From: a virus
Taxonomy: Duplodnaviria; Heunggongvirae; Uroviricota; Caudoviricetes
Direction: 5' to 3' (one strand)
Virus record (IMG/VR): IMGVR_UViG_2648501336_000006
Location: 1-41,157 of that record
Length of the DNA: 41,157 bases
Positions 2,965 to 10,584 of this stretch are shown piece by piece. The notes beneath the pieces were generated by a model. The model searched no databases. It was given only the letters and a program-made list of their open reading frames with translations, and was not told the origin of the DNA. The stretch's first letter is position 1; each line of letters starts with the position of its first letter. The position numbers were made by a program, and so were the translations under genes.

Positions 2965-3249
2965 TTATTCATTGCCGATATTCACCTTTATCGCGAACAC
3001 CTTTACCGGTTTATCACCGAAGTGTGGATGTGTGATTGTTTTTATTTCATATCCGTTATACGGGACGTCAATTCTGCGACTGAAGTCTTCGCGCTTCGGA
3101 TATCCCTTTGTGATAATCAGGCGGTCATACTTACGGTTAACGAGGCGCTTATTCCAGTAGTCATTACACAGGCGATACTCTTCCGTTTTATCTCCGCGAA
3201 TCATGGCATCGAAGTATTCACCTTTGACGGCAAGTTGCAGGTTAGCCAC
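2965..3249 (-). CDS. Hypothetical early protein (94 aa), GTG start
   Basis: GTG start with AGGAGG 6 nt upstream; overlaps the stop of the upstream gene (translational coupling). Confidence 0.6.
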   Translation of the reverse strand: MANLQLAVKGEYFDAMIRGDKTEEYRLCNDYWNKRLVNRKYDRLIITKGYPKREDFSRRIDVPYNGYEIKTITHPHFGDKPVKVFAIKVNIGNE

Positions 3250-4114
3250 GGTTAACCTCCTGCGGCGGCTCCGGTAGCGGCATCCAGTGGGTTACTTTCG
3301 ATGCCGGTTCTTCCCCATCGTCAGTAACTGCCCACCATTTGTTTCTCGACCAATCGTAATACCCTTCGAAGGTATCGCACTCAGTCCAGCCGTAAGACTT
3401 CCCCCAACACCAAACATACTGTTTATCGTTCGGCATTCGCTCACTACAGCTTATCCAACCATCCGGAGTTACCGGAGAGTTGCCTGCCAGTCTACGCAAA
3501 ACAGCCTTAACAGCCTCAATACGGTCATCATCGTAACTTTCCGCCGTATCTATGCGGTCGAGCATGATGATTGCGTTATCAATATCAGGATTGCCGGTCC
3601 ACTCATTACCGCGATTGGATTCGGCAGCCTGGTTGCCGCGTACTGGTTGATTGTCGGCTTTACCCAGTCTGTCGTCGCTGCATGAATGCCCTTCCAGCCA
3701 GGCCAATGCTTGTCGCATGAAATACGCAATATGTTTGCCGTGGTAATCGTCTTCATCGATGTGAAAAGCGATACTACGAATGTATTCAATTGCGTTTTCA
3801 ATGGCCTCTAACGCTATCGGCGCTGGCGGAGTGGTGTATAGTTTTCGACATTTGTATATCCAACCGGCATGGTCAGGCGTGTCTGTAAAACGCAAATCGT
3901 CTTCGTAGCACTCACGACTACGTTCTTTCCATTCCGTCCACGGAACACCGCTATTCCAGGTGGGGCGAGTGCAGGACTGATACAGAACAGGCTCTGCTTC
4001 CAGCGATGCCAGTGCGATTTCATAAGCACGGCGCTCAATATCGTCTCGCACGTCCAGGCTGCCGATTCGCTCTTTGATTTCTTTAATCAGTTCTTTGTCG
4101 GTAAAAGTGCTCAT
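3242..4114 (-). CDS. Phage protein with C-terminal DUF551-like domain (290 aa from internal ATG)
   Basis: ORF track entry starts at TTG; internal ATG at 4114 has AAGGAGA SD; C-terminal W/Y-rich segment ending HWMPLPEPP resembles DUF551. Confidence 0.65.
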   Translation of the reverse strand: MSTFTDKELIKEIKERIGSLDVRDDIERRAYEIALASLEAEPVLYQSCTRPTWNSGVPWTEWKERSRECYEDDLRFTDTPDHAGWIYKCRKLYTTPPAPIALEAIENAIEYIRSIAFHIDEDDYHGKHIAYFMRQALAWLEGHSCSDDRLGKADNQPVRGNQAAESNRGNEWTGNPDIDNAIIMLDRIDTAESYDDDRIEAVKAVLRRLAGNSPVTPDGWISCSERMPNDKQYVWCWGKSYGWTECDTFEGYYDWSRNKWWAVTDDGEEPASKVTHWMPLPEPPQEVNRG

Positions 4115-4115
4115 C

Positions 4116-4553
4116 TCACTCTCCTTTGATGCGAATGCCTGTTGCAATGCTGTTTATGATGCTGTCAGTGCATGGGGTAGAAAGCTGGGCATCTCCAGCA
4201 ATTTTCATGACCTCAACATCTGCATATCGAATACCGAGGTGTATCAGACCGGCTATGCCTGACTTAAGCCGAGCATTTTCCATAAATAGAACCTTTGCCC
4301 GCTGTTTTTCTGCTTCAAGCTCAACGCGCAGCTTCCCTACCGTTAGCGCAATATCCTCGTTCTCCTGGTCACGGCGTTTGATGTATTGCTGGTTTCTTTC
4401 CCGTTCATCCAGAAGCGCCAGCACAATGTGTGGCGTTATCAAGGACTCAAATTCGGCAACAGCTTGCTCGCCTCGCTTGTAATTCTTAATCCCACCTAAA
4501 TCTTTCGCGTTCTGTGCCGCCTCACGCAGTGCCTGATAGTCAATCTTGATCAC
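4116..4553 (-). CDS. Hypothetical early protein (145 aa), coiled-coil rich, GTG start
   Basis: GTG start with AAGGAGG SD 7 nt upstream; GTGA overlap with upstream stop. Confidence 0.6.
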   Translation of the reverse strand: MIKIDYQALREAAQNAKDLGGIKNYKRGEQAVAEFESLITPHIVLALLDERERNQQYIKRRDQENEDIALTVGKLRVELEAEKQRAKVLFMENARLKSGIAGLIHLGIRYADVEVMKIAGDAQLSTPCTDSIINSIATGIRIKGE

Positions 4554-5481: not shown

Positions 5482-5775
5482 TCAGTCATTACTGATAGCG
5501 CCATAGCGTGAGCGGTAATTACGCAGGCGCGGGTCAATTTCAGGGAAGTGGGTATATGTGGCTTTGCGGAATGGTCGGATTGATGTCTGGTAAATTCGCT
5601 CGCGTTCTTCTTTCTCTGCAAGCCATATACAGTGGCGAAATTCCTTTTCCTCTTTCGTTTCCTGTGGTAGCGACATTATCCGATCGTAGTTTCTTCTGAA
5701 TTTATCCAGCACCTCCGATACGGAATTGCCGGAACAGCGGCGCGCGTCATCCGCACCATACAGAGGCGCTGGCAT
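5482..5775 (-). CDS. Hypothetical early protein (97 aa)
   Basis: ATG start with AGGAGA SD 6 nt upstream. Confidence 0.6.
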   Translation of the reverse strand: MPAPLYGADDARRCSGNSVSEVLDKFRRNYDRIMSLPQETKEEKEFRHCIWLAEKEERERIYQTSIRPFRKATYTHFPEIDPRLRNYRSRYGAISND

Positions 5776-5791
5776 GGTTTTCTCCTGTTGA

Positions 5792-6340
5792 TTATTTAGC
5801 TAACTTTTTCCAGATCGCTGAAACGTATTTGGCTTGGTGAATGGCATCATCAAGCGCGTTGTGGCGAGTTCCTTTGAATGGCATATCTCGCTTAGGGTCG
5901 AATCCTATTACCTTCCCAAGTTCGACGATTGTTCTTACGTCGCGGTCATTCCACCACTGCCACGGAACTGGCTGCCCTGTCAGCGAATAACTGTTGCGGA
6001 GAATAACGCAGTCAAATGATGCTCCATTCCCCCAAACCTGAACGAATTTGTGGTTAGCGTTCTTTATGATGAATTCAGATAACCATGAAAGAGCCGTTGA
6101 AAGCTCCTGAGTGTTGCTGGTTAGCGATTTTCTGGCTTCTTCACTCTGTTCCAGCCACCATAAAATCGTTGAAGCGTCAGGACGCGCCCGATATCGCATT
6201 GATGACTCAAGCGAGATATTTACCGAGAACTCTTCTCCTGTTTCTCCGGTATTCGGGTCAAAGAATACTGCCCCAATAGAAATAACTGGCGCGTATGGCC
6301 CGTTGCCCATTGTTTCAAGGTCAACCATCAAGTGATTCAT
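5792..6340 (-). CDS. DnaQ-like (DEDDh) 3'-5' exonuclease, 182 aa
   Basis: Exo motifs visible: DLET (Exo I), GASFD (Exo II), HNALDDA (Exo III); ATG start with AAGGA SD. Confidence 0.75.
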   Translation of the reverse strand: MNHLMVDLETMGNGPYAPVISIGAVFFDPNTGETGEEFSVNISLESSMRYRARPDASTILWWLEQSEEARKSLTSNTQELSTALSWLSEFIIKNANHKFVQVWGNGASFDCVILRNSYSLTGQPVPWQWWNDRDVRTIVELGKVIGFDPKRDMPFKGTRHNALDDAIHQAKYVSAIWKKLAK

Positions 6341-6348
6341 GTAAGTCC

Positions 6349-6855
6349 TTAAATTGCGTGAATAGCGTGACGAGGGAAGGGGAGAGTTACTGGTGCAAAG
6401 GGTATATCGTCGTCAAAATCCATCGGAGGTTCGTTGTGTTGTGCTGGTGATGATTGCTGCTGTGGCTTCTGTGATTGCCTGCTGGCTGCTTGTTGTTTGC
6501 TGTCGCCAATGCCGCCAAGCATTTGCATCACGCCATTAATTCCGACATGAACCTCGGTTGTGTAACGGTCTTGTCCTGACTGGTCTTTCCACTTTCTGGT
6601 TCTCAGCATTCCCTCGAAATAAATCTGATCACCTTTTTTCACATACTGCCCCACGACCTCAGCCAGTTTCCCGGATACAGCAACACGATGCCATTCAGTC
6701 AATTCCTTTTGCTCGCCAGTATTTTTATCTCGCCATTGTTCTGACGTGGCTATTGTCAGGTTAGCGAACGCTGTTCCTGATGGTGAGTATCGAACTTCCG
6801 GGTCTTGTCCTACCCGACCAAGGATAATCACCTTATTTACGCCTCTGCTTGCCAT
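6349..6855 (-). CDS. ssb: Single-stranded DNA-binding protein SSB with 15-aa extension beyond the DDDIPF tip
   Basis: OB-fold region closely resembles E. coli SSB ([27 protein letters not shown]...); contains [10 protein letters not shown] followed by [15 protein letters not shown] before the stop. Confidence 0.9.
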
Positions 6856-7563
6856 TTATGCCGCCTGTTTTAGTTCGTTAACTCTGATGTTCATTACCTG
6901 AACGCATTTAGCCTGCGCATCCTCATTGCCAGCCATTAATTGCCAGTCACGCTGATAACGCTCGATGAGTTTTTTCTTGTCAGTTTCTGTTGATGCATAA
7001 TCGCTGAAGTCTTTCAGGATTTGTTCGCAGTCAACCGATGGAGATTTCTGGTTGGTATTTTCTGGTGATGGTTTGTTATCTGATGCTGGGATTGCCCATA
7101 CCAGCAGCGATGGAGGGAGCCAGTAAAATCCTGTTCCATCCTTCAGTTTTGCCCTGTGCCACCCCTGTTTTTTATCGAGAGATGTTTGTGCGAAACCTTC
7201 CTCAAGGTTATACAGATACCGACCGATTCCCCACTGAACGGCAGCGCGCTTCATTGCACCGGAACGACCACCTTTGACGGCTTCTACCTGCGTGTTTTCA
7301 GCAGCATCCCATTTGGTTACCCATTCGGAATCAATCTTGATTGATATGCCGCATTCAACTCCGCCGTTGTTGGGAATATCGCGGTATTCATTGCGCCATC
7401 CTGCTTTGCCGCAAACATCGTCCAGGCGTTTCATGATTGCCCTGTTCGTGACATAAGCCAGCACCATAGCCCACACCTTGCCATCGCGTGTTTTACCGCT
7501 TTGCTGTATTCGCCATTCGATATCTTCAGGGCTGAATGGCTCATCGAATTTGTTCAAATCCAT
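6856..7563 (-). CDS. Rad52/22-family single-strand annealing protein (recombinase), 235 aa
   Basis: Family assignment from sequence recollection and from position next to ssb in the recombination module; ATG start with GAGGTG SD. Confidence 0.6.
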   Translation of the reverse strand: MDLNKFDEPFSPEDIEWRIQQSGKTRDGKVWAMVLAYVTNRAIMKRLDDVCGKAGWRNEYRDIPNNGGVECGISIKIDSEWVTKWDAAENTQVEAVKGGRSGAMKRAAVQWGIGRYLYNLEEGFAQTSLDKKQGWHRAKLKDGTGFYWLPPSLLVWAIPASDNKPSPENTNQKSPSVDCEQILKDFSDYASTETDKKKLIERYQRDWQLMAGNEDAQAKCVQVMNIRVNELKQAA

Positions 7564-7662
7564 AATTCACCTCAGAATGGACACGGCCCAAGGAAATAAC
7601 GCTGATTTAATACTTCGACTCGGGACAAATTAAGGCATACCCGCATTCCTTCGCGGTCGCCA

Positions 7663-7821
7663 TTATGGCGATACCAGAGAGCTTTCTGCGTGTACATGCG
7701 CCTCTGTAACTTGCTCTCCTTCACTGTGGTTGCAAGTGACATGAATATCTCCTTCGTTGCCGATTAATTCTTTCATCTGACGAATGAATTCTTCGTCTGA
7801 CCAGTTATCTGTAAAACTCAT
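7663..7821 (-). CDS. Small protein in kil position (52 aa from internal ATG)
   Basis: ORF track start is TTG; internal ATG at 7821 overlaps the cIII-like stop (ATGA); call as kil-like is positional only. Confidence 0.4.
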   Translation of the reverse strand: MSFTDNWSDEEFIRQMKELIGNEGDIHVTCNHSEGEQVTEAHVHAESSLVSP

Positions 7822-7988
7822 GGACGGCCTTGTTGTTTCAAAATATCCCAAAGCTTTTCGAGCAAACTTTTCATTCTTGGTTGTTTAAAGTCTGCTCCGG
7901 TTAAAATGTTTTTTCGTGAATGCTGCACCGATAAAATTGGGTTGAAAGGGCGAACCGATGCCGCCCCTGCAATAGCGAACTGTTGCAT
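7818..7988 (-). CDS. cIII: CIII-like protein (FtsH inhibitor family), 56 aa
   Basis: MQQFAIAGAASVRP...LWDILKQQGRP parallels lambda CIII (MQYAIAGWPVAG...LIDILNQPGVP); strong GAAGGAG SD 7 nt upstream of ATG. Confidence 0.7.
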   Translation of the reverse strand: MQQFAIAGAASVRPFNPILSVQHSRKNILTGADFKQPRMKSLLEKLWDILKQQGRP

Positions 7989-8212
7989 AGGATGCTCCTT
8001 CTGTTTGATTGCATAACGAAAATGCCTCAAGTGAAGCGTTATTGGTATGCATATAAAAAGGCCCTCACATCGGAGGGCAAAGAAGATTTCCAATAATCAG
8101 AACAAGTCGGCTCCTGTTTAGTTACGAGCGACATTGCTCCGTGTATTCACTCGTTGGAATGAATACACAGTGCAGTGTTTATTCTGTTGTTTATGCCAAA
8201 AATAAAGGACGA

Positions 8213-8836
8213 TTATGCGACCTCGGAAGGAAGTCCAATCATCTTATTCAAATCTTCTACCCGTAAAGCAGGAAGTGCTGTACTTGCTTTATCTGCTTCT
8301 TTTGGTAGCAACTCTTTGCTTTCAGGCCAAACTTCAATAAGTCGCTTAACTGTTGTGACTGAGTTCAAAGCAGCCCATACATTTGATTCGATATCCTTTT
8401 TCTTGGCTTCAAGTTTTTGTTGCAATGCGCAGATTTCATCAAACCTTTTTGTTATTTCGTGTTCTGCGCTAAACATGCATTTATCTTTGGTCGGAGTAGG
8501 GAGCAATATATCTTCGCCGTTGCCGTCTTTCCCATATGAATACCAGCCAACCCTTCTGCCAGATACAGTCAGATAAATTGAAGTTGAACGGGCATCGCAT
8601 GAGTAAAATGAACATCCCAGCTTTTCAAGTTCTTCGCTTATAGCCATTAACTTGGATGATAACTGATCCACTTCCTCAGTTTTCTTTTTACCGCCAAACA
8701 CAACAACTCTGGCGTCAAGTGCAAGCTGGTTCTTTAACTTTGTTACTTCTTCAAGCTCAGTGAAAACCCCAGATTTAATTAAAGCGTTACGAGCGATTTT
8801 CTCTTTCATACTCGTTGTTAAGCGGATTGATGACAT
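8213..8836 (-). CDS. Hypothetical 207-aa soluble protein in the N-cIII accessory slot
   Basis: ORF track start trimmed to the ATG at 8836 with GAGAGGAA SD; no transmembrane segment; no recognisable domain. Confidence 0.6.
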   Translation of the reverse strand: MSSIRLTTSMKEKIARNALIKSGVFTELEEVTKLKNQLALDARVVVFGGKKKTEEVDQLSSKLMAISEELEKLGCSFYSCDARSTSIYLTVSGRRVGWYSYGKDGNGEDILLPTPTKDKCMFSAEHEITKRFDEICALQQKLEAKKKDIESNVWAALNSVTTVKRLIEVWPESKELLPKEADKASTALPALRVEDLNKMIGLPSEVA

Positions 8837-8950
8837 ATTAATTCCTCTCAAATAAGTGGTTTGCTGCCTAATTTCATTTTCTGGCGACCAACACAAGTCA
8901 CGCCCATTTCACTGCGTGGTTTGCTGTAGTAAATTCGGTTAGTTCAGACA

Positions 8951-9313: not shown

Positions 9314-9619
9314 TCAATAAGCACCGTACGGTGGTTTACTGTACAATTTTATTTTTTGGACTGCATGTATTTTGTTTCCTAATGGGTTTGAATCCTTGTA
9401 ATAAATACTTCTATTTTTTCGAACGACTTCTTCTTTCTTCTTGCAGCAAAGGCTTCCTAGTGATGCTGCTTTGTCTGCTCTGACGCAACCAGAGAGCTTT
9501 AGCGCAATTTTTCGCGCCAGTGCTTCATTACTGCGTCGCTCGGCAATAAGTTCTGCTCTGCGAGCTTTGTAGCGGCTTTTTGCCGTACCTTTGGATTCTT
9601 TCCAGACAATGGTTACCAT
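9314..9619 (-). CDS. N: Antitermination protein N, phage-21 type arginine-rich motif (101 aa)
   Basis: N-terminal GTAKSRYKARRAELIAERR matches the phage 21 N boxB-binding peptide as recalled; AAGGAGA SD; lies between pL/nutL and the leftward operon. Confidence 0.85.
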   Translation of the reverse strand: MVTIVWKESKGTAKSRYKARRAELIAERRSNEALARKIALKLSGCVRADKAASLGSLCCKKKEEVVRKNRSIYYKDSNPLGNKIHAVQKIKLYSKPPYGAY

Positions 9620-9728
9620 GATGGTCTCCTTTAAGTGGCTTTGGCGCATGACGCGTCGAGGTGCTTATCTTCTCGATCGCTGTCTTGCAGCTGCAATTCG
9701 CGCCATCCCCAAAACCACTCAAGTTCTG

Positions 9729-9910: not shown

Positions 9911-9935
9911 AATAAAAAAGGGGCGAAAGCCCCTT
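9911..9935 (-). terminator. Intrinsic terminator after the repressor gene
   Basis: Minus strand GGGGC-TTTC-GCCCC followed by TTTTTTATTT, starting at the c2 stop codon. Confidence 0.7.
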
Positions 9936-10584
9936 AAGGAAGGTTTGCTAGCTTGGCATCAACGACAACGCCAATGATTTTACAGTTCCCATTGATTTCA
10001 ATCATTGGGTATTGTGGATTGAGTGGTTTCAGGAATTTTCTACCGGCATCAATAACTAACTTTTTGAATGTCGCCTCGTTTTCTCCTTCAAGTTTGGCGA
10101 CTACCAGCTTTCCATTACGTGGTTCGACTTCTGGGTCGACGAGAATAATCATCCCCTCAGGAATACTCAGTCCTGCCGGGGCAGTCATTGAGTCGCCTTT
10201 AACATCGAGCCAAAAAGAGTCTTCAGAACAATCTACCGTTGTGTCGTACCAGTTATCTATTGCACGCCTATGATATGGCTCTACAGCTTCCATCCAACAT
10301 CCTGCGCTTACCCAACTAATTAGAGGATACGAACCTCTTGGATCATGCCTGCTGTGATAGGCAATGTTTGAAAGACTATCCTCTCCTTTCAACAGGTAAT
10401 CAGGGGAGCACTGCAAAGCCTTGGCTAAGGCCAATAGGTTTTCGCCATTGGGCTCAGTTTCAGATCGCTCCCATTGGGAAATAGCAACATTAGACACGCC
10501 AACCATCTTGCCAAGGGCAGCCTGCCTAATCTTGAGTTCTTTTCTGCGAGCGCGAATACGCTCACCCATCAGTTGTGTATTCAT
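9934..10584 (-). CDS. c2: P22-type C2 (CI) repressor with LexA-like autocleavage domain, 216 aa
   Basis: Near-identical to P22 C2 as recalled (MNTQLMGERIRARRK...IGVVVDAKLANLP); same length. Confidence 0.95.
   Translation of the reverse strand: MNTQLMGERIRARRKELKIRQAALGKMVGVSNVAISQWERSETEPNGENLLALAKALQCSPDYLLKGEDSLSNIAYHSRHDPRGSYPLISWVSAGCWMEAVEPYHRRAIDNWYDTTVDCSEDSFWLDVKGDSMTAPAGLSIPEGMIILVDPEVEPRNGKLVVAKLEGENEATFKKLVIDAGRKFLKPLNPQYPMIEINGNCKIIGVVVDAKLANLP

Follow-up and report, generated by a model that had tools for sequence, protein, structure and literature searches.

The DNA analysed here, hereafter the window, is the whole 41,157-nucleotide (nt) stretch of the tailed-phage record IMGVR_UViG_2648501336_000006, a mosaic P22-like phage genome whose nearest overall matches are CUS-3 and Kapi1. 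This report concerns a block of recombination genes on its minus strand, and in particular a small DEDDh 3'-5' exonuclease encoded within it. Close relatives of this exonuclease are encoded behind a single-stranded DNA (ssDNA)-binding protein (SSB) whichever annealase family precedes them, a conserved gene order that supports the exonuclease belonging with the annealase and the SSB. I tentatively propose that it trims 3' ends on SSB-coated recombination intermediates. The identity of the recombination module itself is secure. The locus is best explained as a general-recombination module of the P22/HK620 type, placed in the early-left (pL) operon of a temperate P22-like phage, and I consider this account as a whole, the trimming role included, about as likely as not.

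The block consists of five near-gapless minus-strand open reading frames (ORFs), in the order small ORF, annealase, SSB, exonuclease and Abc2:

7572–7742, minus strand: small ORF of 56 amino acids (aa), occupying the arf/hkaM position immediately ahead of the annealase (PHROG 1723, expectation value (E) 9.4e-36)
6856–7563, minus strand: Rad52/Sak-type annealase, 235 aa (Pfam Rad52_Rad22)
6349–6855, minus strand: phage SSB, 168 aa, with an OB-fold (Pfam SSB)
5792–6340, minus strand: DEDDh 3'-5' exonuclease, 182 aa, of the DexA/EcD/Rv2179c family (Pfam PF16473)
5776–6348, minus strand: extent of the exonuclease cassette, comprising the gene and its short flanks (five-way DNA alignment)
5482–5775, minus strand: Abc2, a RecBCD-modifying (anti-RecBCD) protein of 97 aa (Pfam Anti-RecBCD_p2)

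The annealase stop codon abuts the ATG of ssb with a gap of 0 nt, ssb and the exonuclease gene are 8 nt apart, and 16 nt separate the latter from abc2. No promoter-like site was seen ahead of the exonuclease gene. A first-pass annotation, made from the letters of the window, had described a Rad52-like annealase, an SSB and a DEDDh exonuclease at these coordinates; Pfam bears out all three identities. It had missed Abc2 at 5482–5775.

The exonuclease matches PF16473 (Rv2179c-like DEDDh exonuclease) over positions 1–177 of the 177 in the profile, with an E of 2.9e-73. The Exo I–III motifs described earlier are indeed clear, with D7 and E9 in MVDLETMG, D110 in WGNGASFDCVIL, and H160 and D165 in HNALDDAIH. 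These five residues do not vary in an alignment extending to T4 DexA or across 31 homologues, and conservation of the protein extends to 57% identity across genera. I considered whether the protein might be a pseudo-enzyme, and rejected this because the predicted catalytic residues are all invariant. The structural model (predicted local distance difference test, pLDDT, 93) has its best fold match in the PDB with T4 DexA (8KEN/8KEL, template-modelling score (TM) 0.80, E 3e-12), followed by RNase T, REXO2, Cap18, RNase AS (Rv2179c; E about 3e-5) and Orn. A sequence search of the PDB returned 8KEL and 8KEN, both T4 DexA, as the only solved relatives (E 1e-13). Identity is about 31–32% to T4-type DexA and 41% to EcD, a short DexA homologue of E. 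coli. Judged by these comparisons, the exonuclease is a member of the T4 DexA/E. coli EcD family, and from what is known of that family it would be a Mg-dependent 3'-5' DNA exonuclease preferring single strands. DexA is a 3'-5' DNA exonuclease with a preference for ssDNA, and contributes to intron homing initiated by I-TevI (PMC12153337). It also supplies mononucleotides, and is required in optA hosts (PMC12153337). PADLOC gave a weak, generic DEDDh match for the window exonuclease and no defence-system assignment, and NCBIfam holds no model for the exonuclease, the annealase, Abc2 or the small ORF.

The gene order around exonuclease relatives was surveyed in 80 viral-contig loci, in which the neighbours were labelled by tblastn with a reference panel. 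Clade A comprises 42 loci, with exonucleases at least 70% identical to that of the window. The immediate upstream neighbour is an SSB gene in 36 of the 42, an HNH gene, with SSB in turn upstream of it, in four, Sak4 in one and the contig end in one; the exonuclease gene follows that of an SSB, directly or past the HNH gene, in 40 of the 41 informative loci. The annealase further upstream is Sak in 31 loci, Sak4 in five and ERF in three, and Abc2 lies downstream in 38. Clade B comprises the other 38 loci (L072–L109, with further copies at L013:4501-5073 and L014:4501-5070), whose exonucleases are 190 aa long and about 60% identical to that of the window. They usually lie after DUF551 or sb31-like genes, with genes for DUF2303 (YfdQ-like) and a 5'-deoxynucleotidase 1.5–3 kb upstream. 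One prophage, L053, encodes both clades, its clade B copy lying at L053:7339-7908.

The informative part of this survey is the recurrence of the arrangement across unrelated annealases and SSB types. Independent loci show the order ERF-SSB-exonuclease in Klebsiella and in Tbat2_3, Rad52-SSB-exonuclease in Pectobacterium, and Sak4-SSB-exonuclease in Providencia. One identical exonuclease occurs on three contigs, preceded by ERF-HNH-SSB on one of them and by AAA_24-SSB on the other two. Distant relatives, in RcPacific and ZCEC13, have a Gp2.5-like or Enc34-type ssDNA-binding protein upstream and a DNA polymerase downstream. In these two phages (L006:2722-4097 and L007:1440-4031) the full order is a PD-(D/E)XK/Cas4-type nuclease, an ssDNA-binding/annealing protein, the DEDDh exonuclease and the DNA polymerase, and the exonuclease might there serve as the polymerase's proofreader in trans. 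A different arrangement is seen in Shiga toxin (Stx) prophages, where a protein of ~820 aa carries the DEDDh domain at its C-terminus and has no Pfam match over its N-terminal 497 aa. This larger protein is probably the source of the label "exodeoxyribonuclease VIII" carried by small homologues. In an Stx2a-phage record (PPompW element, L005:1588-4055) its gene lies beside xis and is frameshifted.

A five-way DNA alignment of the window, mEp235, HK75, Sf6 and Bas106 was used to delimit the exonuclease gene, and reveals a clean insert of ~560 nt, bounded by the stop codon of ssb and the ribosome-binding site of abc2. In HK75 and Sf6, ...CACGCAATTTAA runs straight into TCAGGAGAAAA-ATG(abc2), while the window carries GGACTTAC-ATG...AAATAA-TCAACAGGAG between those two flanks. 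The HNH gene and the exonuclease gene occur in all four combinations: neither in HK75, the exonuclease alone in the window and mEp235, HNH alone in Sf6, and both in Bas106. At least 1,000 contigs encode the exact exonuclease protein. Within the module the exonuclease is optional, a cassette that does not belong to the core. The earlier description of a module of three genes stands as far as the exonuclease's position is concerned, given that it follows SSB in nearly all clade A loci, but has to be qualified, as it is absent from HK75. Since near-identical modules lack it, I infer that the exonuclease is helpful yet dispensable.

The first-pass annotation had considered the polarity of a 3'-5' exonuclease wrong for classic resection, and had left its role open for that reason. 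The neighbouring gene largely removes this puzzle. Abc2 matches PF11043 (Anti-RecBCD_p2) with an E of 1.9e-62, and is 92% identical to P22 Abc2. In P22 and HK620, Abc2 binds RecBCD and converts it to a 5'-3' exonuclease, whose resection readies the ends on which the phage annealase acts (PMC5928155). By analogy, 5'-3' resection in this phage most likely comes from RecBCD hijacked by Abc2, and with Abc2 present the 3'-5' exonuclease need not resect at all. A resection nuclease was accordingly rejected as a role for it, both because of the polarity and because of the presence of Abc2.

The proposed role of the exonuclease would fit into such a pathway as follows. A double-strand end would be resected by RecBCD-Abc2, the phage SSB would coat the resulting 3' single strand, and the annealase would pair the coated strand with a complementary one. 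The exonuclease would then trim 3' ends that remain unpaired, whether non-homologous 3' tails or flaps or surplus 3' ssDNA, allowing the annealed junction to be extended and sealed. A parallel would be T4 DexA in recombination started by a homing endonuclease. I favour this role, tentatively, because of the conserved adjacency of the SSB and exonuclease genes, the ssDNA preference of the family, and the role of DexA in homing.

Several observations weigh against this proposal. At the level of the family, the enzyme is not tied to recombination genes: in clade B the exonuclease never adjoins an SSB or annealase gene and is instead the last gene before xis, and the operon that encodes EcD has neither gene nearby. 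Within the module itself, HK75 and ECP1 have annealase, SSB and Abc2 without the exonuclease, and in Sf6 and ES18 its place is taken by an HNH gene. Among 5,426 complete E. coli genomes, the exonuclease gene (at least 95% identity) is present in 173, as against about 402 with the annealase gene. The survey sample also holds many near-identical prophages, so that its counts overstate the independence of the loci. A 3'-5' ssDNA exonuclease could equally well destroy the very 3' tails needed for annealing. Lastly, the sole experimental study of a short homologue reports attack on DNA containing 5-hydroxymethylcytosine (5hmC) and protection against T4, and no role in recombination (PMC12153337).

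The homologue in that study is EcD, which cut the T4 genome and not unmodified double-stranded DNA (dsDNA), was selective for 5hmC DNA, and conferred protection on cells that expressed it from a plasmid (Kang et al. 2025, PMC12153337). I located its gene using the primers given in the supplement of that paper; the forward-primer part found the gene, the reverse primer as printed appears to hold one A more than the genomes, and a viral-contig search with the 20-mer of the reverse primer gave one match, which was spurious. EcD is present in 26 complete E. coli genomes, and its residue 78 is Ala when counted from the construct's internal Met, as in PMC12153337. It is an early-operon gene of a P2-type prophage beside btuC (E. 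coli 2013C-3033 chromosome, L018:6989-7570), with small early genes, an integrase, helix-turn-helix regulators, a Dam methylase and the gpA replication endonuclease as neighbours. The paper makes no mention of prophages (PMC12153337), and the finding that EcD is a prophage early gene changes how the claim of a bacterial "HREX" defence is to be read. EcD is not among the 120 best exonuclease homologues listed. Three residues were compared with DexA. W130 of the window exonuclease (QWWNDRD) aligns with DexA W152 (KFWNQRD). Opposite DexA D90 there is a gap, Thr or Ala and no Asp, and EcD likewise has A78. Opposite DexA D169 stands Val or Gly, in a loop with an Asp 2–3 residues away, in a part of the alignment that is unreliable.

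It is conceivable, then, that the window exonuclease is an inter-phage weapon of the "HREX" kind, which chiefly destroys the hydroxymethylcytosine DNA of rival T-even phages and stands in the recombination block incidentally. The activities reported for EcD, to which it is 41% identical, namely cutting of the T4 genome, sparing of unmodified dsDNA and protection from a plasmid (PMC12153337), would suit such a role, as would the match of W130 to DexA W152 and the lack, shared with EcD, of an equivalent of D90; the two paralogues in prophage L053 also argue for non-redundant roles. I nevertheless consider this explanation unlikely. The gene sits in the pL operon, which is under repressor control, and no promoter-like site precedes it, so expression in the lysogen is not expected, and EcD too is a P2-type prophage early-operon gene whose protective effect was measured from a plasmid only. 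The pL operon, the xis-proximal setting of clade B and the P2 early operon are all lytic-phase contexts. The proposed hydroxymethyl reader, DexA D169, is not aligned with an Asp here, though the alignment is unreliable at this point, the PADLOC match is weak and generically DEDDh, and the strict SSB-exonuclease adjacency across three annealase families would be left unexplained. An RNA enzyme, a 3'-5' exoribonuclease of the Rv2179c/RNase AS kind with phage or host transcripts as its substrates, is what the Pfam family name and the NCBI product names ("3'-5' exoribonuclease") would imply, and RNase AS, RNase T, REXO2 and Orn do occur among the fold matches. The nearest relatives by both sequence and fold are nonetheless the DNA exonucleases DexA and EcD (DexA E 3e-12 and TM 0.80, versus about 3e-5 for RNase AS), and the neighbouring genes all act on DNA, which makes this explanation very improbable indeed.

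Two other explanations remain to be weighed. The product of the gene could serve nucleotide salvage, degrading ssDNA and oligonucleotides left by RecBCD-Abc2 or other nucleases to mononucleotides for replication, much as DexA yields mononucleotides and is needed in optA hosts (PMC12153337). The proximity of clade B to a 5'-deoxynucleotidase gene, 1.5–3 kb upstream in most loci, is consistent with this, and oligoribonucleases are found among the fold relatives. Breakdown of the host chromosome for precursors is not known in temperate lambdoid and P22-like phages; in addition, no deoxynucleotidase match was found within the window, and salvage does not predict a position directly behind SSB genes. 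I regard it as improbable. Equally improbable, in my view, is that the gene is a passenger, a moron-like mobile insert at a recombination hot spot behind ssb that makes no contribution to the module. The clean insertion or deletion with conserved flanks is what would be expected of a passenger, the same junction takes an HNH endonuclease gene too, and presence or absence varies among near-identical modules. Set against this, the active site is invariant, conservation is maintained to 57% identity across genera, and the position recurs behind unrelated SSB types, with different annealases and in non-homologous flanking DNA. Trimming of 3' ends on SSB-coated intermediates is thus the role that I retain, with the reservations given above.

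The annealase that precedes ssb is composed of two parts of different origin:

7084–7563, minus strand: N-terminal domain, aa 1–160, Rad52/Sak-type ssDNA-annealing (Pfam, ul36 Sak, fold)
6859–7095, minus strand: C-terminal region, aa 157–235, linker and three-helix bundle, Erf-type (P22 Erf identity)

Residues 4–136 match Rad52_Rad22 (PF04098) with an E of 5.1e-26 and 91.9 bits, versus a cut-off of 20.3, and this profile is present in all 120 annealase homologues among the matches listed. Residues 6–159 are 58% identical over 155 aa to Sak of Lactococcus phage ul36 (E 3e-65). The C-terminal 79 residues (157–235) are by contrast 65% identical to residues 134–205 of P22 Erf (BLASTP, E 3e-31), and also match the ERF-family annealases of Tbat2_3 and of two further loci (L019 and L027) at 30–37% identity. 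The AlphaFold model (pLDDT 86) reflects this division, with an N-terminal beta/alpha domain, a disordered linker (low confidence at 163–175) and a three-helix bundle (helices 179–192, 196–209 and 214–234). Against the PDB, Foldseek places yeast Mgm101 or human RAD52 at each of the 16 top ranks (probability 0.96–1.00, E 4e-4 to 2e-2), with modest target-normalised TM-scores of 0.3–0.48. No RecT or Red-beta structure is among the best 50 fold matches, and there is no RecT Pfam match either. The link to RAD52 and Mgm101 is drawn solely from the Pfam profile and the fold search; a sequence search of the PDB with the single annealase sequence, and then with a 7-sequence profile, returned nothing meaningful. 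The ERF profile PF04404 does not match at E ≤ 0.01, and P22 Erf aligns with the C-terminal 79 residues only. PHROG 1097 labels the annealase "Erf-like", but this is only a name.

From these comparisons the annealase is a fusion of a Sak/Rad52 annealing domain to an Erf-type C-terminal helical domain. The assignment of the annealing domain to the Rad52 family, and not to Erf or RecT, agrees with the first-pass annotation, which had not recognised the Erf tail. Sak was among the query families used by Lopes et al. to define a phage Rad52-like superfamily, in which Sak, Erf and Red-beta are united (PMC2896510). Because the three share this superfamily, the annealase swap is a change of family inside it.

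The SSB matches PF00436 (E 1.6e-36) and TIGR00621 (E 4.5e-49, 166.9 bits versus a cut-off of 53.95). It does not end in the free C-terminal ...DDDIPF; the motif is internal and is followed by further residues:

6352–6396, minus strand: 15-residue SSB extension past the DDDIPF tip (alignment with the E. coli, Sf6 and ul36 SSBs)

This extension is carried by 31 of 40 clade A SSBs, on varied SSB bodies and together with Sak, Sak4 or ERF annealases. In diverged loci, the synonymous and nonsynonymous changes in its 15 codons number 7/0, 5/0, 5/1, 8/2 and 8/3. These changes being mostly synonymous, the peptide itself is selected, and by this codon evidence it is under purifying selection. A search with the last 35 residues of the SSB gave 14 matches, a set from which a motif can be defined, as distinct from a survey of its carriers. 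The related tails include those of a Proteus phage SSB (in a RecE-like/RecT module), a Vibrio phage SSB and metagenomic proteins (tail-bearing genes in fetched loci: L110:2087-2587, L111:2051-2587 and L112:1355-2584), and one ends gp39 of the rV5-like phage PVP-SE1, a protein of 409 aa that is not an SSB. The consensus reads AP-[IV]-[GT]-L-x-[YF]-x-x-H-[AT]-I-[YH]-x-[IL]-COOH, and no description of it was met in the literature searched. The extended tail was found in 166 phage records, far more than have the exonuclease. A link between the exonuclease and the extended tail was considered and rejected, as HK75 has the tail without the exonuclease and four loci combine the exonuclease with a canonical tip.

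The last 14 residues of the window SSB are also the C-terminus of the Sf6 HNH endonuclease gp26. The presence or absence of the HNH gene falls exactly at the IPF codon of ssb (Sf6 gp26, L003:2893-3372; Bas106, L011:2385-2864; window, 6349–6396): where the HNH gene is present, the SSB ends in ...DIPF-stop and the HNH protein bears the 14-residue tail, and where it is absent the SSB bears the tail. The HNH gene resembles an insertion of the homing-endonuclease type at the 3' end of ssb.

In HK620, the cognate SSB stimulates the annealase via its C-terminal tail, that is, its last six residues (PMC5928155). Two published studies, including this one, indicate that annealases read the last 6–7 residues of the SSB, and that the tip governs annealase-SSB compatibility. 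On that ground, the SSB tail probably matters for the working of the module. One could go further and combine the observations into a single view, in which the DexA-type exonuclease is a dedicated third component acting on SSB-coated strands, the peptide past DDDIPF an undescribed interaction or regulatory motif, and the anti-T4 activity of EcD a side effect of a recombination/replication enzyme. I regard this combined view as doubtful. If it were true, the tail motif would choose the nucleases or partners that reach phage ssDNA, for instance by masking the tip from SSB-binding proteins of the host and letting phage factors through.

The locus itself is ordinary and already known, every component belonging to a studied family. 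Its 2.4-kb block has 97% nt identity to mEp235 and mEpX2, in whose GenBank records the four genes are named Rad52/22-family protein, SSB, exonuclease and Abc2, and 90% to the Salmonella phages epsilon34 and g341c, whose records hold the same four genes under other product names. An equivalent of the 56-aa ORF is annotated in mEp235 and in Sf6 (gene 29), and many loci of clade A retain this ORF ahead of a Sak-type annealase. It was considered as a P22 Arf and rejected, as the sequences are not similar. Its PHROG label, "recombinase", is uninformative. It overlaps a second small minus-strand ORF, 7663–7821, by 80 nt in a different frame, and both are annotated in mEp235.

The surroundings of the block are as follows:

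1464–2691: integrase and excisionase
3245–4147: DUF551 gene
4119–4553: Ea22-like gene
7818–7988, minus strand: cIII-like ORF, from its resemblance to annotated cIII proteins of relatives
9314–9649: N-like ORF
9934–10584: C2-type repressor

The Ea22-like and DUF551 genes flank the block on one side and the cIII-like ORF on the other. The first-pass annotation had placed the module between the ea genes and kil/cIII, and these genes agree with that except for kil, no homologue of which was recognised between the cIII-like ORF and the recombination genes, in contrast to mEp235, Bas106 and P22, which do have one. The protein of the cIII-like ORF reads MQQFAIAGA...SLLEKLWDILKQQGRP, and Pfam gave no match for the small ORFs at 7663–8052. 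Between the N-like antiterminator region and the cIII-like ORF lies a 227-aa protein (8213–8896, minus strand), whose Nmad5 domain (nucleotide-modification-associated domain 5, E 1.8e-70) is of full length.

As such the locus adds little, since the same genes, of the same families, are already in GenBank records, and what interest remains lies in the role of the exonuclease and in the SSB tail. The adjacency of SSB and exonuclease within clade A, whatever the annealase family, suggests an unstudied helper step in phage single-strand-annealing recombination, which could affect recombineering toolkits. As to the tail, many phage SSBs have a C-terminal extension under selection, by which the canonical partner-binding tip is buried.

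The exonuclease can be compared with three known enzymes. E. coli exonuclease I is a DnaQ-superfamily 3'-5' ssDNA exonuclease that works on SSB-coated DNA, and docks on the free C-terminal Phe of SSB. It is a possible model for the recruitment of an SSB-adjacent phage exonuclease, the likeness considered being that of the superfamily; the docking Phe is not terminal in the SSB of the window. T4 DexA, the best match by sequence and fold, has the DEDDh pentad in common with the window exonuclease, but is 45 residues longer with extra loops, and has no SSB or annealase gene adjoining. Its D90, which is involved in tetramer formation, has no counterpart in the window exonuclease. EcD resembles the latter in being a short, DexA-type and prophage-encoded enzyme, 41% identical, from an early lytic operon; it differs in being set between small early genes and a Dam methylase, and in its reported role, anti-T4 defence, which comes from plasmid expression only.

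Among known modules, that of ul36 has sak followed directly by ssb, as in the window, and its Sak, the prototype phage Rad52 homologue, is 58% identical in the N-terminal domain; the C-terminal region of Sak is unlike that of the window annealase, and Abc2 and the exonuclease are not beside the sak-ssb pair. The HK620 module, hkaM-sak4-ssb-abc2, is without Arf and Abc1 (Hutinet et al. 2018, PMC5928155). It shares with the window a small ORF, an annealase, a cognate SSB and Abc2, but its annealase is the RecA-like Sak4, a DEDDh exonuclease is lacking, and NDYPPF forms the free tip of its SSB. The P22 module (arf-erf-abc1-abc2) occupies the same pL position. Here the annealing domain is of the Sak/Rad52 type and not of the ERF type, and ssb and the exonuclease gene stand where P22 has abc1; a tblastn search with P22 Abc1 gave no match within the window. 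The first-pass annotation had presented the window genes as standing in place of the P22 Erf/Abc set, and this is true of the ERF-type annealing domain, which has been replaced, but not of Abc2 (92% identical), which adjoins the exonuclease gene downstream, nor of the C-terminal part of Erf, which has been kept (65%). The underlying logic of an annealase working with a hijacked RecBCD is common to both modules.

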